This document shows positions 34,681 to 55,803 of a stretch of DNA of 64,000 nt, piece after piece. Position 1 is the first letter of the stretch; every line of letters begins with the position of its first letter. The notes beneath the pieces are model-generated. The model did no database searches. It was given only the letters and a program-made list of their open reading frames with translations, and was not told the DNA's origin. Origin of the DNA: an uncultured Gemmatimonadales bacterium (GTDB lineage Bacteria; Gemmatimonadota; Gemmatimonadetes; Palauibacterales; Palauibacteraceae); assembly GCA_963783385.1 (NCBI GenBank), contig CAWANJ010000001.1, forward strand, positions 704,001-768,000, in the 5' to 3' direction. The position numbers and the translations under genes are program-made.

Positions 34681-35820
34681 ATGGCGGACGCGGACGCGGG
34701 CCGCCGCGCGCCCCTCGAGATCCGGCCCGGACCGGAGGGCCGCCTGATCGTCAAGCTCCCCTACGATCCCGCGCTCGTGCGCCGGATCCGCGGGATCGCG
34801 GGGCGGCACTGGAATCCGGCGGAGAAGCACTGGACGGTGCCCCGAACGCCCGGAACGGTAGGGCACCTCCTGGAGATGTTCGAGGGCGAGCCCGTGGTGC
34901 TGGACCCGGGTCTGGGCGGCTCGGGGCCGGTGGCGGCGATTCCCGCCGGGGAAGGAGACGCCGGCGAGCTCCTGGCCCGCACCCGCGAGGAGCTCGGGCT
35001 CCGGGGCTACAGCCCCAAGACCCGCCGGGCCTACGCCGGCCACGTGCGCCGCTTCCTGGAATGGCTGGCGAGGGAAGGAGGCGACACCGGGGACCCGGGC
35101 CAGGACGACCTCCGCCGGCACGTGGCCCGCCTCCTGGAGCGGAAGGGCGTGTCCCACTCCTACGCCAACCAGTGCGTGAGCGCGCTCAAGTTCCTGTACG
35201 AGCACGTGCTCGAGCGCCCGATCGGCCAGCTCCGGCTGCCGAGGCCCAAGATCGAGCGCAAGCTCCCCGTGGTCCTCTCGCGCGAGGAGGTCCGGCAGAT
35301 CTTCCGGGCCGTCCCCAACCGGAAGCACCGCGCCCTCCTCATGCTCGTCTACTCCGCGGGGCTCCGGGTGGGGGAAGTGGTGCGCCTGCGGCCCGACGAC
35401 CTGGACACCGGGCGAGGACTCCTGCACGTGCGGCAGGGAAAAGGCCGGAAGGACCGGTACGTCATGCTGTCGGCCGTGGCCGTCGAGGCCGTCGAGGAGT
35501 ACGTCCGCTTCTTCGAGCCCACGCGGTGGCTGTTCCCGGGCGCGAGGCCGCGCCGCCACCTGCACGAGCGCTCCGTGCAGCACCTGTTCGCCCGGGCGTG
35601 CCGCAAGGCGGGCATCCGGAAGCACGCCACCGTGCACACATTGCGGCACTCCTTCGCCACCCATCTTCTGGAAAAAGGCGTGAACCTGCGGTACATTCAG
35701 GAGCTTCTGGGCCACAAGAGCCCCAAGACCACCCAGGTCTACACCCGCGTCGCCGAAGGAGACCTGGCACGAATACAGAGCCCCCTGGACGATCTCATGC
35801 GGGACAAAGGCGCCGGCTAG
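34681..35820 (+). CDS. Tyrosine recombinase (integron-integrase-like, no IntI insertion, HARP-like N-terminal extension)
   Basis: GGAGG RBS; SAM-like domain (RGYSPKTRRAY...SALKFLY); intact R-K-HxxR-H-Y (GLRVGE, GKGRKDR, HTLRH, LLGH, TQVY). Confidence 0.92.
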   Translation: MADADAGRRAPLEIRPGPEGRLIVKLPYDPALVRRIRGIAGRHWNPAEKHWTVPRTPGTVGHLLEMFEGEPVVLDPGLGGSGPVAAIPAGEGDAGELLARTREELGLRGYSPKTRRAYAGHVRRFLEWLAREGGDTGDPGQDDLRRHVARLLERKGVSHSYANQCVSALKFLYEHVLERPIGQLRLPRPKIERKLPVVLSREEVRQIFRAVPNRKHRALLMLVYSAGLRVGEVVRLRPDDLDTGRGLLHVRQGKGRKDRYVMLSAVAVEAVEEYVRFFEPTRWLFPGARPRRHLHERSVQHLFARACRKAGIRKHATVHTLRHSFATHLLEKGVNLRYIQELLGHKSPKTTQVYTRVAEGDLARIQSPLDDLMRDKGAG

Positions 35821-37400: not shown

Positions 37401-37431
37401 CACGCCAACGAACGAGTTAAGCGCCACACGT
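37401..37431 (+). other. Putative attI-like primary recombination site
   Basis: CCAAC-6 nt-GTTAAGC (GTT at 37416); following bases are the inverted complement of cassette 1's 3' end (14/16); no attC upstream. Confidence 0.6.
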
Positions 37432-38741: not shown

Positions 38742-38843
38742 GCTTAACACGACGGGTGCCGCTTCACCGCCTGCGGCGGCTCGCCCTTCGGGACGCCCGC
38801 TCGCTGGGACTCGCGGGCGTCGGCAACCGCGGGGACGTTAGAC
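38742..38843 (+). repeat. attC-like site 1 (family A, 102 bp)
   Basis: GCTTAAC...GTTAGAC; stem CGGGTGCCG/CGGCAACCG. Confidence 0.85.
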
Positions 38844-39036
38844 GCCAGGTCCCCAAGACGGGGGTGATCGATTCCCGATTCGGAGGCGATGTCCCGAACC
38901 GCTGCCGCGAGAGGCGCAGCTCAGGCCGACCCCCGCTCGGAGGGAGAGAGAGCCTCCGAATCGAAGCTGAAGAGCGAATCGCTTAGCAGGTTGGAAGACA
39001 GGGCCACCGCTTGGATCGGGGGACCCGGCGTCTAAC
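38838..39036. repeat. ORF-less structured cassette, copy 1 (cassette 2)
   Basis: Terminal IR and internal CGATTCGGAGGC/GCCTCCGAATCG stem. Confidence 0.85.
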
Positions 39037-39185
39037 AGGATGGGTAGCGGCTCGCGCGCGAGGGCGCGCTCGCTTCAACCTGCTAGGCTTTTCGAAGGCG
39101 GGGATTCGGTGCGGGCTGCTAATCGAGGATCGGTCCGGCAGCGCAGAGCGGGCCAAGCAGGTTCGCTACCCACCGGACGTTAAGC
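39030..39185 (+). repeat. attC-like site 2 (family B)
   Basis: GTCTAAC...GTTAAGC; TGGGTAGCG/CGCTACCCA and AACCTGC/GCAGGTT stems. Confidence 0.85.
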
Positions 39186-39235
39186 GTCACGCTTATATCT
39201 CACCAACCTTGCTCAACGGATGTGGGCACCGGCCA

Positions 39236-39865
39236 ATGGAAACACTCAAGCCACTTGACGAGATCTGCGAACCGGACACGCGACATACGATCTTCGGGGG
39301 ATTTGATCCCGAGGGAGTCAAGGGCGAGGAGGGCGTTAGCCTTCAGACACAGTATGCACAGATGGAGCGCCTGGAATTGCCAAAGTCTGTGCCCGAGACC
39401 GTTCGCTCGGCTTATGCGGTCACCCGCATGCTATGGGTCTACGGATGGTTCTATTGGCCCTTCTACACACTCGCGCTCCTCCACGCCAACACCTGCCTTG
39501 AGATGGCACTCCATCAACGCTTCCTCAAGGACGGCTTGTACGATGAAGAGGGCGACTCATCTAGGAAGGCAAAGAACCGGACGCTAAGCTGGCTGATAAA
39601 GAGAGCCGTTGAGATGGGCTGGTTGGAGGACGAGGCTTTCGAGCACATTCGATGGTGGACCCGGCAGACGCCTCCGTTCGAGAATGAGGGAGACGAATCG
39701 GGACACCAGACCGCACCCGATCCTCAGCGGTATGCGAAGACGCTGGCCTCGACCATTCCGAGCACCCGAAATGCGCAAGCCCATCCGGGGCACTATTCGC
39801 ACGGCTTCCCGCAGGTACTGCCACTTCAGAACGCTCGGGACATCATTGTGCAGTTGTTCATGTAG
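39236..39865 (+). CDS. Cassette 3: HEPN-like protein
   Basis: CLEMAL helix and RNAQAH (RxxxxH). Confidence 0.55.
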   Translation: METLKPLDEICEPDTRHTIFGGFDPEGVKGEEGVSLQTQYAQMERLELPKSVPETVRSAYAVTRMLWVYGWFYWPFYTLALLHANTCLEMALHQRFLKDGLYDEEGDSSRKAKNRTLSWLIKRAVEMGWLEDEAFEHIRWWTRQTPPFENEGDESGHQTAPDPQRYAKTLASTIPSTRNAQAHPGHYSHGFPQVLPLQNARDIIVQLFM

Positions 39866-39884
39866 CGCATTGGGGACGCGCGAC

Positions 39885-40040
39885 GCTTAACAGGACGTGT
39901 GGCGGCTCGCGCGCCAAGGCGCGCTCGCTTCAACCTGCGGAATGCTGGATGAAGCAGTCAGGGGAAACGAGACATGTAGCATATATCAGTCAGGCGAACG
40001 AGAGTGGCCCGCAGGTTCGCCACCCGCCAGAACGTTATCG
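39885..40040 (+). repeat. attC-like site 3 (family D)
   Basis: GCTTAAC...GTTATCG. Confidence 0.85.
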
Positions 40041-40147
40041 GACCTGAGCCGCTCGGCTAGCACGAGTGGATTGGTGGTTGGAACCCCTACGGCCCGGTGT
40101 ACAGGTATCTGCTTGAGCAAGTGCCCGCGGCGGGAGGACTTCACTCA

Positions 40148-40711
40148 ATGTCGATCCAAGCCTCGATCGCATCCTTATGCACGGTGCTGGCGGCTGTCTT
40201 CATGACCTTCGCGGTGCCCCCCAGGGGGACCCAGGCCCAGTCGGTCAAACTCCCGGCGCCGAACGTTCGTCTATGCTATGCGGACTGTGACAGCATCCCC
40301 TCGCTCCCCGATCACGCGGAGCCACACCTCGCGAACCCCTCCGTCATGTTTCAGGCCATGACGGAGGCGTACCGACAGAGACCCAAGACGGCTGCGATCG
40401 GTGGCAGCGCTACCGTGGCGATCCTCATTGGCCAAGATGGTTCGGTCCGAGAGGTTCGTCTCATCACCAGCTCTGGCCACGCTACAATCGACACCATGGC
40501 CGTAGCGGTCGGCAGCGTGATCCGGGCCGCCCCCCGGCCTGGAAGCAAGAAGGTGCATGCCCGCTGGTACGAGATGCCCATCGCCTTCGAGACGAGAGAT
40601 GATGCGAGACAGCCGGTCTACGCCCCGTGTCGGAGATCAAGTCCGATAACAGGTCGGGTGGCGGCTCGCGCGCCAAGGCGCGCTCGCTTCAACCTGCGGG
40701 ATGTCGCTTGA
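40148..40711 (+). CDS. Cassette 4: TonB C-terminal domain protein; ORF ends inside attC 4
   Basis: Signal peptide; G..TVAILIGQDGSV..VRLITSSGH..ID. Confidence 0.65.
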   Translation: MSIQASIASLCTVLAAVFMTFAVPPRGTQAQSVKLPAPNVRLCYADCDSIPSLPDHAEPHLANPSVMFQAMTEAYRQRPKTAAIGGSATVAILIGQDGSVREVRLITSSGHATIDTMAVAVGSVIRAAPRPGSKKVHARWYEMPIAFETRDDARQPVYAPCRRSSPITGRVAARAPRRARFNLRDVA

Positions 40712-40799
40712 AGCCGTCAGCGAAGACGGCCCATGTAGCATATATCAGTCAGGCGGACGCGGCGGGCCCGCAGGTTCGCCACCCGCAAGGACGTTAGAC
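40644..40799 (+). repeat. attC-like site 4 (family D)
   Basis: CGATAAC...GTTAGAC. Confidence 0.85.
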
Positions 40800-40992
40800 G
40801 CCAGGTCCCCAAGACGGGGGTGATCGATTCCCGATTCGGAGGCAATGTCCCGAGCCGCTGCCTCCAGAAGCGCAGCTCGAGCCGAGTTCCGCCCGGAGGG
40901 AGAGAGAGCCTCCGAATCGAAGCTGAAGAGCGAATCGCTTAGCAGGTTGGGAGGCAGGGCCGCCGCTTGGATCGGGGGACCCGGCGTCTAAC
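40794..40992. repeat. ORF-less structured cassette, copy 2 (cassette 5)
   Basis: Same family as 38838-39036. Confidence 0.85.
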
Positions 40993-41142
40993 AGGATGGG
41001 TAGCGGCTCGCGCGCAAAGGCGCGCTCGCTTTAACCTGCTGAGGCCTCTCGCAGATGGGGATCCGATGCGGGCTGCTGATCGAGGATCGGTCCGGCATCC
41101 GAGAGCGGGCCAAGCAGGTTCGCTACCCACCGGACGTTAGGC
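40986..41142 (+). repeat. attC-like site 5 (family B)
   Basis: GTCTAAC...GTTAGGC. Confidence 0.85.
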
Positions 41143-41335
41143 GCCAGGTCCCCAAGACGGGGGTGATCGATTCCTGATTCGGAGGCGAGGTCCCGAGCCG
41201 CGGCCTCAAGAGGCGCAGCTCGAGCCGGACTCCGCTCGAAGGGAGAGAGAGCCTCCGAATCGAGGCTGAAGAGCGAATCGCTTAGCAGGTTGGAAGGCAG
41301 GGCCACCGCTTGGATCGGGGGACCCGGCGCCTAAC
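41137..41335. repeat. ORF-less structured cassette, copy 3 (cassette 6)
   Basis: Same family; appears identical to 43289 and 48458 copies. Confidence 0.85.
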
Positions 41336-41484
41336 AGGATGGGTGGTGGCTCGCGCGCGCTCGCGCGCTCGCAGCAACCTGCGGTAGCTTTTCGAAAAGG
41401 GGAGGCGATGTCGGCGGTCGATTCGGACGCGTCCAGCCCTACGGGTCAGTCCAGCGCAGGTTCACCACCCACCGGACGTTAGAC
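41329..41484 (+). repeat. attC-like site 6 (family C)
   Basis: GCCTAAC...GTTAGAC; TGGGTGGTG/CACCACCCA stem. Confidence 0.85.
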
Positions 41485-41677
41485 GCCAGGTCCCCAAGAC
41501 AGGGGTGATCGATGCCCGATTCGGAGGCGATGTCCCGAACCGCGGCCGCGAGAGGCGCAGCTCAGGCCGACCCCCGCTCGGAGGGAGAGAGAGCCTCCGA
41601 ATCGAGGCTGAAGATCGAATCGCTTCGCAGGTGAGCAGGCAGGGCCGCCGCTTGGATCGGGGGACCCAGCGTCTAAC
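41479..41677. repeat. ORF-less structured cassette, copy 4 (cassette 7)
   Basis: Same family. Confidence 0.85.
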
Positions 41678-41827
41678 AGGATGGGTAGCGGCTCGCGCGC
41701 GAGGGCGCGCTCGCTTCAACCTGCTGAGGCTTCTCGAAGGTGGGGATTCGATGCGGGCTGCTGATCGAGGATCGGTCCGGCAGCGCAGAGCGGGCCAAGC
41801 AGGTTCGCTACCCACCGGACGTTAGAC
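41671..41827 (+). repeat. attC-like site 7 (family B)
   Basis: GTCTAAC...GTTAGAC. Confidence 0.85.
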
Positions 41828-41859
41828 GGAATTCCAAAGGATTCTGAGGGAGCAGAGGA

Positions 41860-42024
41860 ATGCGCACACCGAGGCCACAGGGCTGGAGACCCACAATGTC
41901 CGCAGCCGCAGCAGCCGGTGCTGCCGGTCTCGGGGTCCCGACACACTCCCCTGTCTGGACCGCCTTCGGCGCACTCGTCGGTGCCACGATCGGTTACCTC
42001 GTCGCACTTCGACTAGACAAGTAG
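41860..42024 (+). CDS. Cassette 8: 54-aa small membrane peptide (not in ORF track)
   Basis: MRTPRPQGWRPTMSAAAAAGAAGLGVPTHSPVWTAFGALVGATIGYLVALRLDK; fills the cassette, RBS-like leader. Confidence 0.55.
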   Translation: MRTPRPQGWRPTMSAAAAAGAAGLGVPTHSPVWTAFGALVGATIGYLVALRLDK

Positions 42025-42035
42025 AGAGGAACTCC

Positions 42036-42193
42036 GTCTAACAGGACGGGCGGCGGCTCGCGCGCTCTCGCGCGCTCGACCCAACCTGCGGTAGCTTTTC
42101 AGAAATCGGAACGGTGAGGTGGCGACCGGTGGAGAACCGCTCCGCCCTGCTCTTCAGGCCACCGCAGGTTCGCCACCCGCCGGGACGTTATCC
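42036..42193 (+). repeat. attC-like site 8 (family E)
   Basis: GTCTAAC...GTTATCC. Confidence 0.85.
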
Positions 42194-42217
42194 GCAATCT
42201 CAAGAGGGTTAGGTTCG

Positions 42218-42436
42218 ATGCGCCGGTTTGACGTCTTCGGTCGAATGATGGGAGTCGATCGAAAGGACGACCGTTGGCAGGTCTACGATCTCGGGCCCGA
42301 CGGCAAGCGTCGCGAAGCCCGCGACATCATGATCCCGGCATCGGTCCCCGAGGAGCAGCTCGCTCTCTACCTTGCGGAGATCTTCCATGAGTCAGCGTCG
42401 CCACGACGGCCCGAGGTGCTGGAACTGGACCCCTGA
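42218..42436 (+). CDS. Cassette 9: 72-aa hypothetical protein
   Basis: MRRFDVFGR...LYLAEIFHE; fills the cassette. Confidence 0.7.
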   Translation: MRRFDVFGRMMGVDRKDDRWQVYDLGPDGKRREARDIMIPASVPEEQLALYLAEIFHESASPRRPEVLELDP

Positions 42437-42460
42437 GCCAGCACGGGAGCGAGAGTCTGC

Positions 42461-42616
42461 GGATAACAGGATGGGTAGCGGCTCGCGCGCTGCGCGCACT
42501 CGCTTCAACCTGCTGAAGCTGTTCGGAGGTGGGGATTCGGTGCGGGCAGCTGATCGAAGATCGGTCCGGCAGCGGAGAACCGGCCAAGCAGGTTCGCTAC
42601 CCACCGGACGTTAGGC
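42461..42616 (+). repeat. attC-like site 9 (family B)
   Basis: GGATAAC...GTTAGGC. Confidence 0.85.
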
Positions 42617-42809
42617 GCCAGGTCCCCGAAACGGGATGTGCCGGGTTCCGATTCGGAGGCGAGGTCCCGAGCCGCTGCCTCTAGAAACGCAGCTCAGGCT
42701 GAGCTCCACTCGGAGGGAGAGGATGCCTCCGAATCGAGGCTGAAGAGCGAATCACTTAGCGAGATGACAGGCAGGGCCACCGCTTGGATCGGGGGACCCG
42801 GCGCCTAAC
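42611..42809. repeat. ORF-less structured cassette, copy 5 (cassette 10)
   Basis: Same family. Confidence 0.85.
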
Positions 42810-42956
42810 AGGATGGGTGGTGGCTCGCGCGCTCGCGCGCTCGCAGCAACCTGCGGTAGCTTTTCGAAAAGGGGAGGCGATGTCGGCGGTCGATTCGGTC
42901 GCGTCCAATCCAGCGATTCAGGCCAACGCAGGTTCACCACCCACCGGACGTTAGGC
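42803..42956 (+). repeat. attC-like site 10 (family C)
   Basis: GCCTAAC...GTTAGGC. Confidence 0.85.
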
Positions 42957-43149
42957 GCCAGGTCCCCGAAACTGGATGTGCCGGGTTCCGATTCGGAGGC
43001 GGGGTCCCGAGCCACTGCCTAGAGAGGCGCAGCTCAGGCTGAGCTCCACTCGGAGGGACAGAATGCCTCCGAATCGAGGCTGAAGAGCGAGTCGCTTAGC
43101 GAGAGGGAAGGCAGGGCCACCGCTTGGATCGGGGGACCCGGCGCCTAAC
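42951..43149. repeat. ORF-less structured cassette, copy 6 (cassette 11)
   Basis: Same family. Confidence 0.85.
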
Positions 43150-43294
43150 AGGATGGGTGGTGGCTCGCGCTCGCGCGCTCGCGGCAACCTGCGGTAGCTT
43201 TTCGAAAAGGGGAGGCGATGCCGGCGGTCGATTCGGACGCGTCCAATCGAGCGAATCAGGCCAACGCAGGTTCACCACCCACCGGACGTTAGGC
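43143..43294 (+). repeat. attC-like site 11 (family C)
   Basis: GCCTAAC...GTTAGGC. Confidence 0.85.
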
Positions 43295-43487
43295 GCCAGG
43301 TCCCCAAGACGGGGGTGATCGATTCCTGATTCGGAGGCGAGGTCCCGAGCCGCGGCCTCAAGAGGCGCAGCTCGAGCCGGACTCCGCTCGAAGGGAGAGA
43401 GAGCCTCCGAATCGAGGCTGAAGAGCGAATCGCTTAGCAGGTTGGAAGGCAGGGCCACCGCTTGGATCGGGGGACCCGGCGCCTAAC
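43289..43487. repeat. ORF-less structured cassette, copy 7 (cassette 12)
   Basis: Same family. Confidence 0.85.
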
Positions 43488-43636
43488 AGGATGGGTGGTG
43501 GCTCGCGCGCGCTCGCGCGCTCGCAGCAACCTGCGGTAGCTTTTCGAAAAGGGGAGGCGATGTCGGCGGTCGATTCGGACGCGTCCAGCCCTACGGGTCA
43601 GTCCAGCGCAGGTTCACCACCCACCGGACGTTATCA
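43481..43636 (+). repeat. attC-like site 12 (family C)
   Basis: GCCTAAC...GTTATCA. Confidence 0.85.
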
Positions 43637-43684
43637 GAAACGCGCCCCAGCTGATTGGAAATAGGAGATTGGTACTGCAGCGCC

Positions 43685-43972
43685 CTAGGTGGAGGACGCA
43701 GCCTTCCTGGCTGGCGGAGGAGCCGGGGTACCATCCAGCATGCCGCGGATGCTGATGTCTTCGTCAACGTCGGGCCAGTGAATGCCTTGACCAGCTCCGA
43801 TAAGACGGAAGTTGGTGCGCTGTTGGGGCGTGGCTTCGCTCAAGCGCCACGACCACGCGAGCGGGACACTGATCGTACGGCCGTCTGTCAGGCGCGCGAT
43901 GATCTCATTGTCGGTCACCTCGACGTCGGTCGCCAAGGGTTCAGACGTGGCCGCAGTGTTCGTCCCAGGCAT
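43685..43972 (-). CDS. Cassette 13: DUF2442 family protein
   Basis: LTDGRTISVPLAWSWRL..AT..Q...GIHWPDVDEDIS. Confidence 0.8.
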   Translation of the reverse strand: MPGTNTAATSEPLATDVEVTDNEIIARLTDGRTISVPLAWSWRLSEATPQQRTNFRLIGAGQGIHWPDVDEDISIRGMLDGTPAPPPARKAASST

Positions 43973-44183
43973 TCGAGATCCTCTGGATGTGGGACTCAAT
44001 CAAGCCCCGGATCCTGTTGAGCTCGCGCGGAGCGAAGCCATGGTTGCGAGCGAGAACCAACGGGTCCAGCCAGAACTTGCACGTGGACCGATCACGCTCG
44101 ACATGCACATGCTTTGGCTCCCTGCAATCGAAGCTGTAGAAGAAGAACCGGTACGGTCCGGAGATGTCTGAAATGGTTGGCAT
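43941..44183 (-). CDS. Cassette 13: DUF4160 family protein (putative TA partner)
   Basis: MPTI...GPYRFFFYS..EPKHVHV...KFWL. Confidence 0.8.
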   Translation of the reverse strand: MPTISDISGPYRFFFYSFDCREPKHVHVERDRSTCKFWLDPLVLARNHGFAPRELNRIRGLIESHIQRISNAWDEHCGHV

Positions 44184-44285
44184 CACGCGTCCCGGCCCGA
44201 GGCTTCTCTACCCTCAGATGCTAGCATACACCGAGGCGCCTCGCCAAGAGCCGCGTTGGCCTCGAGGTCCACGGTCGCGCGAATC

Positions 44286-44441
44286 TGATAACAGGACGGG
44301 TGGCGGCTCGCGCGCCAAGGCGCGCTCGCTTCAACCTGCGGAATGTCGGTTGAAGCAGTCACTGGAAGCGGGCAATGTAGCATATGTCAGTCAGGCAAAC
44401 GAGGGTGGCCCGCAGGTTCGCCACCCACCGGGGCGTTATGT
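44286..44441 (+). repeat. attC-like site 13 (family D)
   Basis: TGATAAC...GTTATGT. Confidence 0.85.
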
Positions 44442-44481
44442 CAAATGGCGCGCCATTGGCCTACGAGGCTAGATTTCTCGT

Positions 44482-44769
44482 ATGACACCGGCGGTGGCTG
44501 AGCTTCGGGAGCAGGTGCGAGACGTCATGCGGAAGCGTGGGGTCGTCCGAGCCAGTGTGTTCGGGTCCGTGGCCCGCGGGGAGGATCACCCGGCGAGCGA
44601 TGTGGACTTCCTCGTCGAGCTGGAAGAGGGACGGACCCTCCTCGACCTGGCTGGCCTGCGGCTGGATCTCGAGGACCTTCTGGAGCGCGACGTTGACGTA
44701 GCCACACCGGCTTCTCTCCATCCCCAGCTCCGCGAACGTATCCTCGAGCAGCAGGTCCCGATCTTGTGA
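44482..44769 (+). CDS. Cassette 14: minimal nucleotidyltransferase
   Basis: VFGSVARGE...SDVD. Confidence 0.85.
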   Translation: MTPAVAELREQVRDVMRKRGVVRASVFGSVARGEDHPASDVDFLVELEEGRTLLDLAGLRLDLEDLLERDVDVATPASLHPQLRERILEQQVPIL

Positions 44770-45110
44770 CGCGCTCGGCTCGGATCCTTCTCGGGGACAT
44801 CCTTGAGGCAGCCGAGCTGCTCGAACGCTACACGGCCGGCATCTCCCACCAGCAATTCGCGAACAACCTCGAGAAGCAGGACGCCGTCGCCCGCCGGATC
44901 GAGGTCATTGGGGAAGCCGTCAAAGGCCTCCCCGAGTCCCTTCGCCAGCGGCACCCCGAAGTGCCGTGGCGGGAGATTGCCGGAGCGAGGGATGTCCTGA
45001 TTCACGAATACTTCCGAATCGACGTCAGGCTCGCCTGGGAGATGGTTCAGAAGGACATCCCGGACCTGGCAGCCAAGGTCCGGAAGATCCTGGGTGAACT
45101 CGAAGACTGA
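44766..45110 (+). CDS. Cassette 14: HEPN/DUF86 toxin
   Basis: DAVARRIEVIGEA, RDVLIH. Confidence 0.85.
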   Translation: MTRSARILLGDILEAAELLERYTAGISHQQFANNLEKQDAVARRIEVIGEAVKGLPESLRQRHPEVPWREIAGARDVLIHEYFRIDVRLAWEMVQKDIPDLAAKVRKILGELED

Positions 45111-45123
45111 GGTCTGCCACTTC

Positions 45124-45225
45124 ACATAACACGACGGCTGCCGCTTCGCCGCCTGCGGCGGCTCGCCCTGCGGGACGCCCGCTCGCTGAGACTCGCGGGC
45201 GTCGGCAACCGCGGGGACGTTAGAC
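45124..45225 (+). repeat. attC-like site 14 (family A)
   Basis: ACATAAC...GTTAGAC. Confidence 0.85.
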
Positions 45226-45419
45226 GCCAGGTCCCCGAAACAGGGGATGGTCGGTTCCCGATTCGGAGGCGATGTCCCGTAGCGCTGCCTCGGTGAACGC
45301 AGCTCAGGCTGAGCTCCACTCGGAGGGAGAGGATGCCTCCGAATCGAGGCTGAAGAGCGAATCGCTTAGCGAGATGGAAGGCAGGGCCACCGCTTGGATC
45401 GGGGGACCCGGCGCCTAAC
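45220..45419. repeat. ORF-less structured cassette, copy 8 (cassette 15)
   Basis: Same family; one core mismatch (GTTAGAC/GCCTAAC). Confidence 0.85.
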
Positions 45420-45569
45420 AGGATGGGTGGTGGCTCGCGCGCGCTCGCGCGCTCGCAGCAACCTGCGGTAGCTTTTCGAAAAGGGGGAGGCGATGTCGGC
45501 GGTCGATTCGGACGCGTCCAGCCCAACGAGTCAGGCCAGCGCAGGTTCACCACCCACCGGACGTTAGAC
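45413..45569 (+). repeat. attC-like site 15 (family C)
   Basis: GCCTAAC...GTTAGAC. Confidence 0.85.
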
Positions 45570-45762
45570 GCCAGGTCCCCAAGACGGGGGTGATCGATTC
45601 CCGATTCGGAGGCGATGTCCCGAACCGCTGCCGCGAGAGGCGCAGCTCAGGCCGACCCCCGCTCGGAGGGAGAGAGAGCCTCCGAATCGAAGCTGAAGAT
45701 CGAATCGCTTAGCAGGTTGGGAGGCAGGGCCGCCGCTTGGATCGGGGGACCCGGCGTCTAAC
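45564..45762. repeat. ORF-less structured cassette, copy 9 (cassette 16)
   Basis: Same family. Confidence 0.85.
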
Positions 45763-45911
45763 AGGATGGGTAGCGGCTCGCGCGCGAGAGCGCGCTCGCT
45801 TCAACCTGCTAGGCTTTTCGAAGGTGGGGATCCGATACGGGCTGCTGATCGAGGATCGGTCCGGCAGCGGAGAGCGGGCCAAGCAGGTTCGCTACCCACC
45901 GGACGTTAGGC
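45756..45911 (+). repeat. attC-like site 16 (family B)
   Basis: GTCTAAC...GTTAGGC. Confidence 0.85.
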
Positions 45912-46104
45912 GCCAGGTCCCCGAAACAGGGTGTGCCGGGTTCCGATTCGGAGGCGATGTCCCGAACCGCTGCCTCCAGAAGCGCAGCTCGAGCCAGCTT
46001 CCGCTCGGAGGGAGAAAGAGCCTCCGAATCGAGGCTGAAGAGCGAATCGCTTGGCGAGATGGCAGGCAGGGCCACCGCTTGGATCGAGGGACCCGGCGCC
46101 TAAC
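45906..46104. repeat. ORF-less structured cassette, copy 10 (cassette 17)
   Basis: Same family. Confidence 0.85.
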
Positions 46105-46253
46105 AGGATGGGTGGTGGCTCGCGCGCGCTCGCGCGCTCGCAGCAACCTGCGGTAGCTTTTCGAAAAGGGGAGGCGATGTCGGCGGTCGATTCGGACGCG
46201 TCCAGCCCAACGAGTCAGGCCAGCGCAGGTTCACCACCCACCGGACGTTATAA
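46098..46253 (+). repeat. attC-like site 17 (family C)
   Basis: GCCTAAC...GTTATAA. Confidence 0.85.
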
Positions 46254-46360
46254 GACATGCCATAGACGGGTGGGCCGATGGACCGATATCTACGTTGGCC
46301 TTGCGCCCCTTCGTGTCCGATGGGGAGCTGGGCAGCCGCTCTGGCCCGATCGGAGATGAG

Positions 46361-46759
46361 ATGACAGACCTCAACGAGTTCACGCTGGAGCAGGCCGAGG
46401 CGGCGGCCGCGAAGTTGTGGGCGTTCGGCAGCGCCCCTTTCCCGATGGCGGACGGCGCGGTCATACAGGGTCATGTTGAGAAAGCTGTGACTGATACGGC
46501 CATCGCTTTCGCCATCCACGTGCGCCGCCTCCTAGATAATCACGGCATCCGTACCCGATTCACGCTTGATGAGCCGTTTGTGCACTGGTCACCAACCGGC
46601 TCTGCGCCGAAGGTGGCGGTTCTTCGGGATGCCTTGAATCGAATCGTGCATGCCATTGATTTCGAGGTCGGCTTTGAGCGTCTACCGGATGATCAACACA
46701 AGATCAAAGGTGGCGCGATCACGGTCCTGGTACCTTCGGACCAGAACCGACCAACGTGA
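46361..46759 (+). CDS. Cassette 18: hypothetical protein, probably frameshifted near 46730
   Basis: RDALNRIVHA helix; protein-like text continues in another frame (YLRTRTDQREEGLIDVFALA). Confidence 0.5.
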   Translation: MTDLNEFTLEQAEAAAAKLWAFGSAPFPMADGAVIQGHVEKAVTDTAIAFAIHVRRLLDNHGIRTRFTLDEPFVHWSPTGSAPKVAVLRDALNRIVHAIDFEVGFERLPDDQHKIKGGAITVLVPSDQNRPT

Positions 46760-46906
46760 GGAAGGGCTGATCGACGTGTTCGCGCTTGCGTCCTGGCTTC
46801 TACCACCAGGTCTTGCCCGCGGTGCGTGGTCTTGGCCCCGATATGGCGTAACTTCCAGGTGGCGGAATGCTATTGATGCCTGGGTGTGCGGTGTGGTGGG
46901 CACGTC

Positions 46907-46999
46907 TTATAACAAACGGGTGCCGCCTTCGCTCGCTGCGCTCGCTCCGGAGAACACGGCCCGCGGTGCGGGCCGCGTCGGCACCCTAGGACGTTATGT
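46907..46999 (+). repeat. attC-like site 18 (short, 93 bp)
   Basis: TTATAAC...GTTATGT; GGGTGCCG/CGGCACCC. Confidence 0.8.
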
Positions 47000-47028
47000 G
47001 CAAGTTCGGAACTAGCGCGAAGGTAGGA

Positions 47029-47298
47029 TCAGAGACGAGATAGTAGGTCATCATAGTCGGCGTGGGAGCCGATCCAAAACCAGACGAGATCCTCCTGATC
47101 GCGGACACAGAGGGCCCGGTAGCCGCGACCGACGCGCGCGGAGTAGACCGGCCGGGAGGGATGAACCTGCTTGAACTGAAGGCTCGGATGCGTCGGGTCA
47201 CGCTGAAATCGACGGTAGGCAATCCGGGCCTGCCGTTGAACGTGCGCTGGAAGTTGTGCGAAGGCCTTACGAAAGCGCGAGGTCGTGTGGGACGTCAC
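47029..47298 (-). CDS. Cassette 19: RelE/ParE-like toxin
   Basis: FRKAFAQLP...HPSLQFK...YRAL...WFWIGSHADYD. Confidence 0.8.
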   Translation of the reverse strand: MTSHTTSRFRKAFAQLPAHVQRQARIAYRRFQRDPTHPSLQFKQVHPSRPVYSARVGRGYRALCVRDQEDLVWFWIGSHADYDDLLSRL

Positions 47299-47513
47299 AG
47301 CGCATCGGGCTCGAGCGGCTTGGTCCGCCCGCGTCGATGCTCTTCCAGGGCTTCGTCGGCTAGGGACTCAAGGTGGCTTGCCGACGCGGCGAAGGAGCGG
47401 TCCCACTCCTCATCCGACTCGATCTCGTCGAGGAGAATCGCCGCTAGGGCGTCCTGCTGCTCGGAGGGCAGCCTCCTGGCCGCCTCGATCGCCTTCTTCA
47501 GTAGCTCGGTCAT
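47295..47513 (-). CDS. Cassette 19: cognate antitoxin
   Basis: MTELLKKAI...WDRSF...LADEALEE; GGAGG RBS; GTGA overlap. Confidence 0.75.
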   Translation of the reverse strand: MTELLKKAIEAARRLPSEQQDALAAILLDEIESDEEWDRSFAASASHLESLADEALEEHRRGRTKPLEPDAL

Positions 47514-47598
47514 CGTTTCCTCCGCCGTTCGGTGAATTCTACGCCGGCAGCCTGCACAAGTGCCAGCGGCCAGGCGAGCCACTCGGCGCCAAACCTGC

Positions 47599-47755
47599 AC
47601 ATAACAGGACGGGTAGCGGCTCGCGCGCGGAAGCGCGCTCGCTTCAACCTGCTGAAGCACTTCGGAGGTGGGGATCGGATGCGGGCTGCTGATCAGGGAC
47701 CGGTCCGGCAGCGGAGAGCCTGCCAAGCAGGTTCGCTACCCACCGGACGTTAGGC
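47599..47755 (+). repeat. attC-like site 19 (family B)
   Basis: ACATAAC...GTTAGGC. Confidence 0.85.
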
Positions 47756-47948
47756 GCCAGGTCCCCGAAACAGGGTGTGCCGGGTTCCGATTCGGAGGCA
47801 ATGTCCCGAACCGCTGCCTCCAGAAGCGCAGCTCGAGCCAGCTTCCGCTCGGAGGGAGAAAGAGCCTCCGAATCGAGGCTGAAGAGCGAATCGCTTGGCG
47901 AGATGGCAGGCAGGGCCACCGCTTGGATCGAGGGACCCGGCGCCTAAC
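47750..47948. repeat. ORF-less structured cassette, copy 11 (cassette 20)
   Basis: Near-identical to 45906 copy. Confidence 0.85.
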
Positions 47949-48097
47949 AGGATGGGTGGTGGCTCGCGCGCGCTCGCGCGCTCGCAGCAACCTGCGGTAG
48001 CTTTTCGAAAAGGGGAGGCGATGTCGGCGGTCGATTCGGACGCGTCCAGCCCAACGAGTCAGGCCAGCGCAGGTTCACCACCCACCGGACGTTAGAC
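47942..48097 (+). repeat. attC-like site 20 (family C)
   Basis: GCCTAAC...GTTAGAC. Confidence 0.85.
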
Positions 48098-48129
48098 GGA
48101 ATTCCAAAGGATTCTGAGGGAGCAGAGGA

Positions 48130-48294
48130 ATGCGCACACCGAGGCCACAGGGCTGGAGACCCACAATGTCCGCAGCCGCAGCAGCCGGTGCTGCCGGTCT
48201 CGGGGTCCCGACACACTCCCCTGTCTGGACCGCCTTCGGCGCACTCGTCGGTGCCACGATCGGTTACCTCGTCGCACTTCGACTAGACAAGTAG
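48130..48294 (+). CDS. Cassette 21: duplicate of the 54-aa peptide
   Basis: Appears identical to 41860-42024, including its attC. Confidence 0.55.
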   Translation: MRTPRPQGWRPTMSAAAAAGAAGLGVPTHSPVWTAFGALVGATIGYLVALRLDK

Positions 48295-48305
48295 AGAGGA
48301 ACTCC

Positions 48306-48463
48306 GTCTAACAGGACGGGCGGCGGCTCGCGCGCTCTCGCGCGCTCGACCCAACCTGCGGTAGCTTTTCAGAAATCGGAACGGTGAGGTGGCGACCGGT
48401 GGAGAACCGCTCCGCCCTGCTCTTCAGGCCACCGCAGGTTCGCCACCCGCCGGGACGTTAGGC
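48306..48463 (+). repeat. attC-like site 21 (family E)
   Basis: GTCTAAC...GTTAGGC. Confidence 0.85.
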
Positions 48464-48656
48464 GCCAGGTCCCCAAGACGGGGGTGATCGATTCCTGATT
48501 CGGAGGCGAGGTCCCGAGCCGCGGCCTCAAGAGGCGCAGCTCGAGCCGGACTCCGCTCGAAGGGAGAGAGAGCCTCCGAATCGAGGCTGAAGAGCGAATC
48601 GCTTAGCAGGTTGGAAGGCAGGGCCACCGCTTGGATCGGGGGACCCGGCGCCTAAC
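48458..48656. repeat. ORF-less structured cassette, copy 12 (cassette 22)
   Basis: Same family. Confidence 0.85.
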
Positions 48657-48805
48657 AGGATGGGTGGTGGCTCGCGCGCGCTCGCGCGCTCGCAGCAACC
48701 TGCGGTAGCTTTTCGAAAAGGGGAGGCGATGTCGGCGGTCGATTCGGACGCGTCCAGCCCTACGGGTCAGTCCAGCGCAGGTTCACCACCCACCGGACGT
48801 TAACT
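48650..48805 (+). repeat. attC-like site 22 (family C)
   Basis: GCCTAAC...GTTAACT. Confidence 0.85.
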
Positions 48806-48934
48806 GAAAGGTGCCTGTGGATTCAGAACGGGGCCTGAGACAGAGAGAGATGGATGCTGGAGGAGGCGTGGCGACCCAACTCAAGGGACACGTGCGGACG
48901 GCTGGCCACGGCCGACGTATCAAGAGGAGGCGCG

Positions 48935-49432
48935 ATGCGAAGAGGCACGTCAGCGACGGTGGCTGAATTCCTCGGGAGTCTTCCAGTTGACCGGCAGACG
49001 ACCGTGGAGGCGGTGCGGGCCGTGATTCGTCGACACCTGCCCCAGGGCTACGAGGAGGTGGTGGCAAAAAACATGCTGGTCTATCAGGTGCCGCTCAGCC
49101 GGTATGCGGACACCTACAACGGCCATCCGCTGTGGTATGTGGCGTTGGCGTCGGAAAAGTCGTACCTCTCGCTGCATTTGATGCCGGTATACGGGAGCGC
49201 TATCTACGCGGAGCGCCTAGCAGAGGGCTTCCGAAAGGAAGGCAAACGCCTGGACATGGGTAAGGCATGCGTACGGTTCCGGAAGATTGAGGACCTAGCC
49301 CTCGCTCCGATCGGTGAAATAGTTGAAAGCGTGCCGGTGGATCGTTGGGTGGAGATTGCCAAGAGCGCGCGATCTCGAAGATCGCGGGACGGATCTGCTG
49401 GCCGCGCCACACCGGGTGCAGGCGACGGATAG
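48935..49432 (+). CDS. Cassette 23: DUF1801 (YdhG-like) protein
   Basis: LPQGYEE...YVALASEKSYLSLHLM...LDMGKACVRF; AGGAGG RBS. Confidence 0.8.
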   Translation: MRRGTSATVAEFLGSLPVDRQTTVEAVRAVIRRHLPQGYEEVVAKNMLVYQVPLSRYADTYNGHPLWYVALASEKSYLSLHLMPVYGSAIYAERLAEGFRKEGKRLDMGKACVRFRKIEDLALAPIGEIVESVPVDRWVEIAKSARSRRSRDGSAGRATPGAGDG

Positions 49433-49518
49433 AGGCGGTCCGGAAGCATTGGTAGAGGATTGTTAGCGCCGAGGTGGTGTGGCGACGAGCGGTGCTGTAG
49501 TACGCACCGGCACCCATC

Positions 49519-49678
49519 AGTTAACAAACAAGTTGCGCCTACGCCGCGCATGCGCGGCTCCGGGGAACACCGGCGCAAGGCACGCGGGCCGTGGGAAGCG
49601 TGCCGAGAATGTGTCGAAGAGCGGTGCTCGACGGGCCGTGACGGACGCGCCGGCGTCGCAACTTTAGGAACGTTAGGC
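49519..49678 (+). repeat. attC-like site 23 (unique, 160 bp)
   Basis: AGTTAAC...GTTAGGC; AAGTTGCG/CGCAACTT. Confidence 0.8.
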
Positions 49679-49871
49679 GCCAGGTCCCCGAAACAGGGTG
49701 TGCCGGGTTCCGATTCGGAGGCGATGTCCCGAACCGCTGCCTCCAGAAGCGCAGCTCGAGCCAGCTTCCGCTCGGAGGGAGAGAGAGCCTCCGAATCGAG
49801 GCTGAAGAGCGAATCGCTTGGCGAGATGGCAGGCAGGGCCACCGCTTGGATCGAGGGACCCGGCGCCTAAC
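49673..49871. repeat. ORF-less structured cassette, copy 13 (cassette 24)
   Basis: Near-identical to 45906 copy. Confidence 0.85.
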
Positions 49872-49933
49872 AGGATGGGTGGTGGCTCGCGCGCGCTCGC
49901 GCGCTCGCAGCAACCTGCGGTAGCTTTTCGAAA
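49865..49933 (+). repeat. attC-like site 24 (family C), left part; interrupted by IS1595 element
   Basis: Family C sequence stops at TTTCGAAA and resumes at 54537. Confidence 0.85.
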
Positions 49934-49998
49934 CGGAACTATGCACTTGACAAACCCATGCGCCCATGGTACCTTTCATAGTAGAAAGGGGAGCTACC

Positions 49999-50907
49999 AT
50001 GAGCATGACGTTCGCGGAAGCATTGGCTCTGTCGGAGAGCGAGGCAAGGACCTATCTGGAGCGCATCCGCTGGCCGGAAGGTCCCGTGTGCCCCCATTGC
50101 GGCGCGTCGGACCGGATCTATGACCTCCAGGGTAGCGCGCACCGCGAGGGCCTCTACAAGTGCGGATCCTGCCGGAAGCAGTTCACGGTCACGGTCGGTA
50201 CCGTCATGCACCGGACCAAGATCCCGCTCCGCAAGTGGGTTCTGGCCTTCCAGATCCTGTGCGCGTCCAAGAAGGGTGTCTCGGCCCTGCAGCTCCAGCG
50301 GATGCTGGACCTCGGGTCCTACCGGACCGCATGGCACATGGCGCACCGCATCCGGCTTGCCATGCGGGAAGAGCCACTCGCCACCATGCTCCATGGGCAC
50401 GTGGAGGTCGATGAGACCTACATTGGCGGCAAGACACGGAAGGGCATCCGTGGGCGGGGCTCGGAGCGGAAGACCCCGGTCCTGGCACTCGTGGAGCGGA
50501 ACGGCCGCGTGCGGTCGCAGCCCGTCCAGCGCGTGTCCGGCAAGGAACTCAAGGCCGCGATCCGGGAGCAGGTTCACAAGTCGGCCGCGATCCACACCGA
50601 CGAACTGGCCTCCTACAAGGGCATTGGTGCCGAGTTCGAGGGCGGACATCACGTGGTGCGGCACGGACGGGGCGAGTACGTTGCCGGTCCGGCGAGCACC
50701 AACACCGCTGAGAGCTACTTTGCCCTGCTCAAGCGGTCGATCCACGGAGCCTATCACAGCGTGTCGAAGAAGCATCTGGGGCGCTACCTCGACCACCAGG
50801 GCTTCCTGTGGAACACCAGGGACCTTCCGGATGGGGCGAGAGTGGATGCGGCGGTCCGCGGAGTCGGTGGCAAGCGGCTTACGTATTCGACGCCACGTAA
50901 CCGGTGA
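49999..50907 (+). CDS. IS1595 family transposase
   Basis: CPHCG...YKCGSCRKQFTV Zn ribbon, VEVDETY, HTDE, TNTAESYF. Confidence 0.92.
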   Translation: MSMTFAEALALSESEARTYLERIRWPEGPVCPHCGASDRIYDLQGSAHREGLYKCGSCRKQFTVTVGTVMHRTKIPLRKWVLAFQILCASKKGVSALQLQRMLDLGSYRTAWHMAHRIRLAMREEPLATMLHGHVEVDETYIGGKTRKGIRGRGSERKTPVLALVERNGRVRSQPVQRVSGKELKAAIREQVHKSAAIHTDELASYKGIGAEFEGGHHVVRHGRGEYVAGPASTNTAESYFALLKRSIHGAYHSVSKKHLGRYLDHQGFLWNTRDLPDGARVDAAVRGVGGKRLTYSTPRNR

Positions 50908-50983
50908 GGATTGCGTGTTACAACGTAACCTTGTTACAGCTAACAGCGATGACTAGATTCGATGGGCTACTTGACAGCGGCAA

Positions 50984-51085
50984 TGCGGGCGACCGGCTTT
51001 GCACCGGCACGGGGCAGCCTCGGGTAAGGGTTTGCGCCCCACCGACTCCCAAGGTCGGCGTGTCTACTAGTTCCACCACGCCCGC
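50984..51085 (-). ncRNA. tRNA-like (tRNA-Leu-type scaffold) RNA or pseudo-tRNA
   Basis: Acceptor GCGGGCG/CGCCCGC+A, anticodon arm CCGAC-CTTGGGA-GTCGG, long variable arm, T arm GCCGG-TGCAAAG-CCGGT. Confidence 0.6.
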
Positions 51086-51247
51086 AGCGGAGGTCCAGGC
51101 CGGGCTGGTGCGGCGTACCGTACCGCCCATTCGGGGCGCGTACCCAACGCCCCTTACCCGGTCCTGGCCCGTCAACCGGTCGCGGCTACGCCCGCGCCCG
51201 GCCCCTCACGGCCCTCACGGACACCACCCGTGGGGGCCGTCTTCATC

Positions 51248-51658
51248 CTATCGGATCTTGTACCGTTTCTCGCGGCTTCCCTTCACGGGATCCAGCTTTA
51301 CGTACACGTTGTCCTCGGTGGTCCCGTGATGCAGGTCCCAGCGCACGGAGTTCTTATTGAGCACCTCTCCCGTGCTGGCGCTCCGCTCCACGATCTCATT
51401 GATCGTAAGTGGGCTGTCCGCTCCGCGAAGGATGGTGGTGACTCGCTCTCGAATGCTGACATCTCCGGCAGCACCGGCCGATGCGTGGGCCTTTCCATTG
51501 CGCCCGGCACCGGCTGCACCCGTCTTCTGGACGGCGTCAACCAGCTCCTTCAGCGTCTCGTGGACCAACCGCTGGAGTTCCAGTTTGCGCTCCGCCTGCC
51601 GGATCTCCACCTCGCTATCCTCGAGCTTCTTCCGGAGCAGATCCATGACTTCTGTCAT
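51248..51658 (-). CDS. IS passenger: coiled-coil plus winged-HTH-like protein
   Basis: AAAGGAG RBS; RVTTILRGADSPLTINEIVE. Confidence 0.55.
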   Translation of the reverse strand: MTEVMDLLRKKLEDSEVEIRQAERKLELQRLVHETLKELVDAVQKTGAAGAGRNGKAHASAGAAGDVSIRERVTTILRGADSPLTINEIVERSASTGEVLNKNSVRWDLHHGTTEDNVYVKLDPVKGSREKRYKIR

Positions 51659-51783
51659 TGTTTCGGAACTCCTTTCGGCGGGCCAGCCATCACTCAGTGT
51701 TGGTGGACTGATGGAAGGTAAGCGCTCAGGCATGGAGGAGCAAGGAGGCCATCCGATGGGCCATCACTCGAGGAGGGCATCCT

Positions 51784-51954
51784 ATGAGTAAGCCGCATGA
51801 CAAGGAGTCAGGAGAGCGGGATTCGCTCTCCCTTCATCCCCTGGAGTTGGATGAAGCCATGGCCGGTTTCCTTCAAGTGGACCCCAAGAAGGTGAAGGAG
51901 GCGGAACATGAAAGGCAGCATGAAGACGAGAATGACACTCGGGAGGACCGATGA
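51784..51954 (+). CDS. IS passenger: 56-aa acidic protein (not in ORF track)
   Basis: MSKPHDKESGERDSLSLHPLELDEAMAGFLQVDP...; RBS; ATGA overlap with next gene. Confidence 0.55.
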   Translation: MSKPHDKESGERDSLSLHPLELDEAMAGFLQVDPKKVKEAEHERQHEDENDTREDR

Positions 51955-54500: not shown

Positions 54501-54536
54501 CGGCGGCGCACTGGGTTTGTCAACGCCATAGTTCCG

Positions 54537-54631
54537 TTTCGAAAAGGGGAGGCGATGTCGGCGGTCGATTCGGACGCGTCCAGCCCAACGAGTCAGGCCA
54601 GCGCAGGTTCACCACCCACCGGACGTTATGC
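54537..54631 (+). repeat. attC-like site 24, right part
   Basis: Family C remainder ending GTTATGC. Confidence 0.85.
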
Positions 54632-54674
54632 GAAAACCGATGAATGGCCAGATCCTTCTGGACTACAGAGGCCC

Positions 54675-54860: not shown

Positions 54861-54941
54861 TCTCAACCTCCTTGCTCAAGGTATGGTGAAGAACCTCAAG
54901 ATTCAAAATATTTGGCTATGCAAGGAGCGCTGTCAGTCTTC

Positions 54942-55043: not shown

Positions 55044-55087
55044 GCCACCGCCGTGCGAACTGGGATTCCTATAACGGGACAAATACG

Positions 55088-55786: not shown

Positions 55787-55803
55787 CGTCAGGAACTGGC
55801 GGC

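Follow-up and report, generated by a model that had tools for sequence, protein, structure and literature searches.

The IntI-specific insertion serves to define integron integrases (IntI) and to locate integrons, and passages of one published account (PMC7790495) tie the step from double-strand to single-strand recombination to the gain of the I2 helix. Relatives of IntI without the insertion have already been seen in a classification because, in the portions of Smyshlyaev et al. (2021; PMC8138268) considered here, an "integron-like subgroup" of simple tyrosine recombinases is described in which the insertion "is not fully conserved"; the same portions, supplements aside, contain 0 occurrences of HARP, draw no link between insertion-less enzymes and arrays, and mention no bulge-less sites. 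Sections of Cury et al. (2016; PMC4889954) report 50 recombinases without the IntI-specific region near attC sites, note that the four intermediate ones had fewer than three sites, and state that such proteins "are not IntI". Parts of Ghaly et al. (2022; PMC9668308) place the archaeal attI just downstream of intI and treat the additional domain as required, and parts of the IntegronFinder 2.0 paper (PMC9024848) count one complete integron in Bacteroidetes. Here we describe a locus in a 64,000-nucleotide (nt) stretch of DNA from an uncultured Gemmatimonadales bacterium (contig CAWANJ010000001.1, positions 704,001 to 768,000; from here on, the window), in which a tyrosine recombinase gene (34681..35820, + strand) lies upstream of an array of attC-like sites (38742..61408, + strand).

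The recombinase resembles IntI and, on alignment, lacks the IntI-specific insertion; it carries an N-terminal HARP-like domain, and the sites of the array lack the bulge that characterizes the L box of attC sites beside canonical IntIs. The explanation that we favor, and hold to be somewhat the more probable, is that this gene specifies the integrase of a cassette platform of the integron type, one that functions without the insertion. Judged from the letters of the DNA, the window system is probably a new integron variant, and the recombinase and its array may represent an overlooked kind of integron. A literature search returned no insertion-less integrase that carries HARP or heads arrays, no bulge-less natural attC arrays, and no paper joining HARP with tyrosine recombinases; the supplements of the relevant studies (the Cury 2016 tree and the Smyshlyaev 2021 datasets) may hold earlier sightings.

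The recombinase and its N-terminal domain

The called start of the gene corresponds to Met9 of the longest open reading frame (ORF; P0001, 34657-35820, + strand, 387 aa), and a 379-aa protein in the protein collection that is 100% identical to the window recombinase fits a start at 34681. Pfam recognizes SAM_4 and Phage_integrase: the core-binding (SAM-like) domain occupies residues 105-190 (34969..35226, + strand; PF13495, E 2.4e-15), and the catalytic domain occupies residues 207-366 (35275..35754, + strand; PF00589, E 2.5e-44). The latter bears the full R-K-H-R-H-Y set (R237, K262/K265, H327, R330, H353, and Y362), in which R237, R330, and H353 are invariant and H327, Y362, and K262/K265 are at least 90% conserved across 118 homologues. 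The integron integrase model TIGR02249 is the best NCBIfam model for the protein, scoring 223.7 bits, below its cut-off of 265, and aligning in two stretches; the Xer models all stay under their cut-offs as well (NF040815 (XerA) 208.6/220, TIGR02224 186.6/335.15, and TIGR02225 185.2/329.6). When all PDB sequences were searched, the best match was the integron integrase VchIntIA (2a3v, E 2.5e-43), and with the full-length AlphaFold (AF2) model, which has a mean predicted local distance difference test (pLDDT) score of 89.3, Foldseek placed VchIntIA at the top and XerA next. The C-terminal SPL(D) motif of IntI also aligns. As judged by these matches, the recombinase belongs to the IntI/Xer-related radiation and has an intact catalytic set.

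The stretch in which IntI carries its insertion is short in this protein. The motifs GKGRKDR (residues 261-267) and HTLRH (residues 327-331) are separated by 59 aa (residues 268-326; 35458..35634, + strand), including VEEYVRFFEPTRWLFPG at residues 279-295, whereas the spacing is 100-101 in 19 canonical IntIs. In relatives with the N-terminal extension the spacing is 58-63, and in the genome's two Xer-like genes it is 65 and 71. The alignment with VchIntIA falls into two pieces (query 104-276 with chain residues 4-174, and query 298-378 with chain residues 238-318), so that 21 query residues stand against 63 in VchIntIA (IntI4), whereas XerA (4a8e) and XerD (1a0p) each align in one piece. By these alignments, the recombinase is without the ~41-residue IntI-specific insertion near patch III, which carries the I2 helix in IntI, where the additional domain counts about 35-40 residues. 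The protein thus shares with Xer recombinases (XerA, XerC/XerD) a two-domain core without the insertion, but it differs from them in its scores, in its extra N-terminal domain, and in being tied to a cassette array. Among all recombinase ORFs collected, the insertion and the HARP-like domain were never found together (HARP in 0 of 33 insertion-bearing versus 34 of 74 insertion-less recombinases), in a sample that was gathered by similarity and is hence not unbiased.

A tree of 118 rows (LG+G4, quick search, SH-aLRT support) united the canonical IntIs in one clade (support 100), with the window recombinase outside it in a 26-row clade of proteins of the N-terminal type, i.e. with the N-terminal domain (support 99). 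The Bacteroidota proteins of this type formed a 32-row group (support 84), and the genome's own Xer genes branched apart (support 99). The order of the IntI clade, the window clade, and the Bacteroidota clade is not resolved in this tree, and we therefore make no claim on whether the insertion was lost or never gained, or on sister groups.

The HARP-like domain comprises residues 20-82 (34714..34902, + strand), among them LIVKLPYDPALVRRIRGIAGRHWNPAEKHWTVP at residues 30-62, and is followed by a linker of low predicted order (residues 83-104; 34903..34968, + strand). The domain was modeled by AF2 as strand, strand, helix, strand, strand, helix, strand (beta-beta-alpha-beta-beta-alpha-beta), with a pLDDT of 93-97 in the full model and 86-91 when modeled alone; in the linker region, values under 50 occur at residues 89-96 of the full model and at residues 88-108 of the domain-only model. 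A Pfam scan of the protein gave nothing on residues 1-104 at E<=1, including HARP (PF07443), whose 25-bit cut-off was not reached. However, PF07443 matches 59 of the 118 full-length homologues at E<=0.1 (best E 6.1e-5), and three of four homologues scanned singly match it at 14-20 bits, which is under the cut-off. We built a profile, A3, from 22 N-terminal domains alone. Against the PDB sequences, its sole match below E 0.1 was 4o66_A, the HARP domain of SMARCAL1 (E 7.6e-4; next 0.25); against 1.84 billion representative proteins, it found 5645 at E<=0.001, with matches to HARP-SNF2 helicases at E about 1e-23 to 1e-25. Ten of the 150 A3 matches listed, picked by length and not randomly, were scanned with Pfam and proved to be five SNF2 helicases, three recombinases with four domain copies, and two short proteins without a Pfam family. 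Pfam called HARP in three of the five helicases (P0219, 45.3 bits, and P0269, 27.6 bits, both over the cut-off; P0263, 23.4 bits). In P0263, the Pfam HARP and A3 matches overlap (2676-2715 against 2679-2723), and in P0219 and P0269 the best stretch for Pfam is a neighboring tandem-repeat copy, not the stretch matched by A3. These profile results settle the question of homology: by sequence profile, the N-terminal segment is a true HARP homologue.

Structural comparison is compatible with the same class of domain. With the domain alone as query against 350,542 PDB chains, Foldseek ranked chains A and C of 4o66 first and second, at a weak E of 0.084 and with nothing at E<=0.001. In a VIA comparison with 48,161 chains, the top match was the N-domain of T4 UvsW (1rif_B; Z 7.9, root mean square deviation 1.6 A over 62 residues), with further matches to 2oca (UvsW, Z 7.4), XPB N-domains (Z 5.8-5.9), and eIF1/SUI1-fold proteins (Z 5-6); 4o66 stood at rank 31 with Z 3.9, and a Z below 8 may reflect a common arrangement. 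The HARP domain, the N-domain of UvsW, and the damage-recognition domain of XPB reportedly share one fold, and the modeled domain appears to match this fold class. The preliminary description had claimed, from the letters alone, that the insertion is missing and that the N-terminal segment is HARP-like. Both claims are borne out: the insertion is missing by motif spacing, by the comparison with VchIntIA, and by the split TIGR02249 alignment, with XerD aligning unbroken; the resemblance to HARP is upheld by PF07443 in homologues and by the reach of A3 to 4o66 and SNF2 helicases.

The domain is found once in the window's genome. It differs from that of the HARP helicases in being fused to a tyrosine recombinase and not to an SNF2 motor, and in lying below the Pfam threshold; to our knowledge, it would be the first HARP domain outside SNF2 motors. 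Some Bacteroidota recombinases have tandem HARP-like domains in two or three copies, and up to four occur among relatives (L020, L025, L030, L031, L062, L074, and L086; P0122-P0271, two to four copies), a tandem arrangement also seen in HARP helicases. Further, two or three HARP-like copies make up many proteins 150-350 aa in length, and those scanned (P0122 and P0126) were the ones without a Pfam family. An extra N-terminal module on a linker before the core-binding and catalytic domains is also a feature of lambda Int-type arm-binding integrases; no lambda-Int-type N-domain (arm-binding fold) appeared among the best 50 VIA matches listed.

The array of attC-like sites and the canonical integrons of the phylum

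Past 36 kb of the window, the GC content drops from about 0.72 to about 0.60. The array contains 27 sites recognized by pattern, all on the + strand like the recombinase gene, plus at least two found by a structure-based detector, whose yield on shuffled DNA was about 0.05 sites in 28 kb. Repeat screens by k-mers and by self-BLAST missed arrays in which the sites are dissimilar. The sites fall into two size classes of about 100 and about 157 nt and are laid out as R'' (C/A)TAAC, an unpaired spacer of 4-5 nt, an unbulged L box of 8-9 bp, a variable branched tip, the L' arm, a spacer of 6-8 nt, and R' GTTA. As in integrons, the sites thus have R''/R' AAC/GTT boxes, unpaired spacers, and L boxes, and the unequal spacers of attC are retained. 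In 22 of the 26 adjacent site pairs, the four bases after GTT are complementary (4/4) to the four before the next AAC, compared with a mean of 5.0 and a maximum of 12 pairs when partners were shuffled (1000 trials); two of the four exceptional pairs enclose an extra site found by the detector. This boundary complementarity argues for cassette exchange at G|TT, which is the integron signature. The long site has 24 matches in the 3.54-Mb genome, all of them at C1:743032-779652 on the + strand, which indicates a single array; it extends about 11.6 kb beyond the end of the window and stops less than 1.5 kb short of where the contig ends.

Between the gene and the array lies GTTAAGC (37416..37422, + strand). 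It lacks a folded partner upstream, and its sequence is the complement of the R'' GCTTAAC of the first site. Because of its position and this complementarity, it is likely to be the attI crossover point, although the pattern by itself is no rarer than chance (four matches in the window, a number reached by 14 of 100 shuffles).

Contigs of four metagenome runs (four studies) that cover 54000-62000 in part contain attC-like sites and the cassette at 55945-57393. Their loose ends and joints fall at R''/R' boxes (54628-54633, 54941-54943, 55038-55041, 55945, 57433, 58240-58242, 61300-61309, and 61404), and in one contig two sites are joined with 678 letters of other sequence in between. These ends and joints fit cassette exchange at R boxes, if weakly.

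We next compared the window with canonical integrons of the same phylum, in which TIGR02249 is over its cut-off in 79 of the 201 genomes sampled. This sample includes three unpublished genomes (G133, G217, and G192), on which alone no claim rests; L090, from G133, is one canonical row in the spacing, tree, and domain co-occurrence counts. The window's genome, which is 92% complete, has no TIGR02249 match over the cut-off, i.e. no canonical IntI. Canonical IntIs of the phylum are likewise found upstream of same-strand arrays, so that the window gene occupies the position of IntI, and the R boxes (GCCTAAC/GTTAGGC) are the same in the canonical arrays and in that of the window. The L boxes, however, differ. 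Sites were found at 11 of the 12 canonical IntI loci searched, and 69 of these 72 sites have a single-base bulge after 4-5 bp of the L box, the position of the extrahelical base; the bulge is present in 0 of 23 window sites, of which 19 are perfect over at least 8 bp and four have one mismatch. Ten sites were scored in four further arrays next to N-terminal-type genes; three of them counted as bulged, each weakly and after 6-7 paired bases. The pairing of an insertion-less recombinase with bulge-less sites suggests that enzyme and site have co-varied.

We note that G005, a genome of the same family as that of the window, combines a canonical IntI (427 bits) with a recombinase of the N-terminal type, carried by contigs C146 and C149 of about 2.1 kb each. 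The long attC-like site was found in only one (G003) of five relatives with an N-terminal-type gene, and it was not found in five well-assembled canonical-IntI genomes of other families of the phylum, an empty result that is uninformative. Same-family and same-phylum relatives of the recombinase are nearly always at contig ends and so give no neighborhood context, and a metagenome scan yielded one close relative (L109), the contig of which ends 1.2 kb downstream.

Relatives in other bacteria

As a control, site densities were determined across a set of recombinase loci. Beside N-terminal-type genes, there were 0.168 sites per kb downstream and 0.021 upstream, and the corresponding values for canonical IntIs were 0.146 and 0. 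Related recombinases without the domain gave lower values downstream, both those without the insertion ("short"; 0.036 downstream and 0.022 upstream) and those with a spacing of 65 ("short65"; 0.031 downstream and 0.013 upstream). The gene-then-same-strand-array layout recurs in L032 (Gilvibacter), in L047 (Winogradskyella), in L015 (Spirochaetota), and on a plasmid (L128). In L015, an attI-like GTTATATG lies 80 nt past the stop codon, and a 98-nt site has an unbulged 8-bp L box. On a 66-kb plasmid of Chryseobacterium sp. (L128, NZ_CP041688), four structured repeats of 282 nt start 18 nt past the stop codon. The 282-nt repeats, at 10026-17852 of this locus, have an IS110 transposase and a reverse transcriptase of a group II intron between them, and two annotated "hypothetical proteins" that sit within repeats are probably not genes.

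For a selection that depends less on manual choice, the L047 protein was compared with 301 Flavobacteriales genomes, 91 of which contain a match at E<=1e-50. For 16 loci in which the N terminus was covered and the contig was large, 6 kb upstream and 12 kb downstream were taken, and 15 of the 16 proteins match the A3 profile; the motif spacing is 58-59 in all 11 proteins that have both motifs. Detector sites numbered 50 across 181,408 nt downstream versus 2 across 96,000 nt upstream, and at least three repeated segments were present downstream in 6 of the 16 loci and upstream in none of the 16. With respect to the L box, 17 of the 50 sites are perfect, 24 have one mismatch, 4 are bulged on the left (the canonical position of the extrahelical base), and 5 are bulged on the right. 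In 21 of the 24 mismatched L boxes, the top strand has A where G would pair, and for this reason a G.T wobble forms in the bottom strand only. The mismatch lies 4-5 pairs into the L box in the examples from L032 and L047, which is the depth of the canonical bulge, and when these sites were folded singly the bottom strand was more stable than the top by 7.8 (L032) and 5.6 (L047) kcal/mol. The bottom-strand wobble in the Flavobacteriales arrays (L032, L047, and L129-L144) may thus be a strand cue.

One locus differs in its recombinase. In L041, from a Firmicutes metagenome-assembled genome (MAG), a recombinase with neither the HARP-like domain nor the insertion adjoins five large repeats (229-5959). 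The repeat reads CCTAAC, a 7-nt spacer, GGCTAAACG ... CGTTTAGCC, a 4-nt spacer, and GTTAGG; it is bulge-less, and its orientation is divergent. Insertion-less integron-like platforms may therefore be broader than the HARP-bearing family.

The preliminary description had further proposed that the N-terminal segment recognizes branched sites in place of extrahelical-base readout. The second half of this proposal gains indirect support from the distribution of the canonical bulge, which is the rule beside canonical IntIs (69/72), absent from the window (0/23), and rare in Flavobacteriales (4/50). For the first half, in which the branch or side arm is what the domain reads, the data give no support in the form proposed. 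Branching was predicted in 47 of 72 canonical sites versus 30 of 33 sites beside N-terminal-type genes, so that it is common beside canonical IntIs too, and the side-arm reading is weakened further by the bulge-less array of L041, with its recombinase lacking insertion and domain. Given the branching counts, we do not regard branched sites as a peculiarity of the HARP-bearing family, an idea that was considered and rejected.

As a side observation, MAG contigs very often end a few kb downstream of N-terminal-type genes (for example L010, L016, L030, L055, L062, L086, L113, and L114), as expected if repeated arrays break assemblies; this is an informal impression and not a formal count. L010, from a DPANN archaeon (Undinarchaeales), has two adjacent N-terminal-type recombinases at 8478-11059, and its contig ends 34 nt after the second.

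Site recognition and competing explanations

If the recombinase is the integrase of the array, it would bind folded single-stranded attC-like sites as R-box/L-box pairs and, in the manner of IntI, exchange strands at G|TT of R'. Since both the bulge and the I2 region that reads it are absent, the site and the strand would have to be recognized by other structural cues. Candidate cues would be the unequal spacers (4-5 versus 6-8 nt), the bottom-strand G.T wobble that many relatives show at L-box position 5-6, and a junction, either where the L box ends on its inner side or where single strand meets duplex at the base. DNA junctions are the substrate of HARP in SMARCAL1-type annealing helicases and of the equivalent domains of UvsW and XPB, and by analogy it is a reasonable inference that the HARP-like domain is the best candidate for a reader of DNA junctions. 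Extended to the relatives, this explanation would make the window's high-GC genome, Bacteroidota, Spirochaetota, and plasmids hosts to a second widespread integron lineage, marked by I2-less integrases with one to four HARP domains, bulge-less attC sites, and other strand cues, a generalization that we put forward tentatively and with rather less confidence than the assignment of the window gene.

Several observations weigh against the explanation that we favor. The attI-like point lies 1.6 kb past the recombinase stop codon, with three to four ORFs between, a gap much longer than the 80 nt of L015 and the 18 nt of L128. Both strands of the window sites fold about equally stably and offer no strand cue there. 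Fewer than two detector sites were found downstream in 7 of the 16 Flavobacteriales loci and likewise in L024 and L027. L041 indicates that HARP is not obligatory for insertion-less enzymes, since its bulge-less array adjoins a recombinase without it, and predicted branching does not set the HARP-bearing loci apart. The fold scores for the HARP domain itself are weak in both Foldseek and VIA, and the population evidence is weak because it consists of contigs only, with short sides and repeat sites. Finally, because canonical IntIs are common in the phylum and G005 has both kinds of enzyme, a canonical IntI could be encoded in the unassembled 8% of the genome or could act in trans.

Other explanations account for some of these points. 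It is conceivable, though in our estimation unlikely, that the recombinase serves the array and that its HARP-like domain does not read folded attC but binds duplex accessory sites at attI in an arm-binding-like manner, mediates multimerization, or recruits the enzyme to forks or gapped DNA where single strands fold. The disordered linker on which the domain sits, resembling the arm-binding domains of complex tyrosine recombinases, would suit such a role, as would the variation in copy number from one to four among relatives, the absence of the domain from L041, and the occurrence of branching outside HARP-type arrays. However, no repeated duplex motif was seen near the attI-like point, where no search was aimed at one; the homologues of the domain belong to enzymes that act on forked or junction DNA, and the loss of the bulge together with its reader leaves a gap in recognition that a structure-reading domain would fill. 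We consider it more doubtful still that the array is left over from, or served in trans by, a canonical integron, i.e. attC sites clustered without an integron-integrase (CALIN), with the recombinase doing another job such as element integration or dimer resolution. The frequency of canonical IntIs in the phylum, the R boxes identical to those of canonical arrays, and the distance from the gene to the attI-like point would all be accommodated in this way, and the sections of Cury et al. cited above also count on this side. What argues otherwise is that no canonical IntI was found in a genome that is 92% complete, that the window sites are without the bulge of canonical sites, that a gene followed by an array is met again in other phyla and on a plasmid, that upstream and control site densities are about tenfold lower, and that the genome has separate Xer-like genes.

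The resemblance to HARP could also be fortuitous, reflecting only a small alpha/beta fold that is common, the segment being an unrelated family-specific extension. In keeping with this, Pfam HARP does not match the recombinase itself, Foldseek gave an E of 0.084, and eIF1/SUI1-fold proteins score above 4o66 in VIA (Z 5-6 against 3.9), in a range below Z 8 that can reflect a common arrangement. The A3 profile, on the other hand, has 4o66 as its sole PDB match below E 0.1 and reaches SNF2 helicases in which Pfam independently calls HARP, and PF07443 matches half of the homologues (59/118), so that we regard a chance likeness as very improbable.

Were the favored explanation of an insertion-less integron integrase true of a large family, integron-type cassette capture would not need the I2/extrahelical-base pair, and enzyme and site would have co-varied. 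If there were a second integron lineage, as proposed above, the gain of the I2 helix would cease to be linked with how single-strand recombination arose in integrons. Further, searches that require the IntI-specific region would leave such platforms unreported, and many arrays would likely have been missed or filed as orphan clusters. Flavobacteriales, which are counted as nearly integron-free, would then hold many cassette arrays; the single complete Bacteroidetes integron of IntegronFinder 2.0 contrasts with the 91 of 301 Flavobacteriales genomes that have a homologue. That a reader of DNA structure is joined to a recombinase is also open to direct testing.

Cassettes and cargo of the window

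A unit of ~342 nt is present in the array in thirteen copies, which are 76-98% alike (38808-49942), and consists of a 157-nt attC-like site and a conserved spacer of ~185 nt. No convincing + strand ORF was seen in the unit examined (41100-41500), and Rfam gave 0 matches across the window; the unit looks like an ORF-less mini-cassette that has been amplified in the array. Cargo genes were noted at 36398-37335, 38137-38727, 49966-50907, 51951-54332, and 57484-59372. They include a helix-turn-helix protein, an MNT/HepT toxin-antitoxin pair, a DUF5343 protein with a protein like pPIWI-associated nucleases, an IS1595 transposase inside the array, an Eco57I-like methylase, a DUF3800 protein, and a TIR-domain protein, so that toxin-antitoxin and defense-type genes make up much of the cargo.

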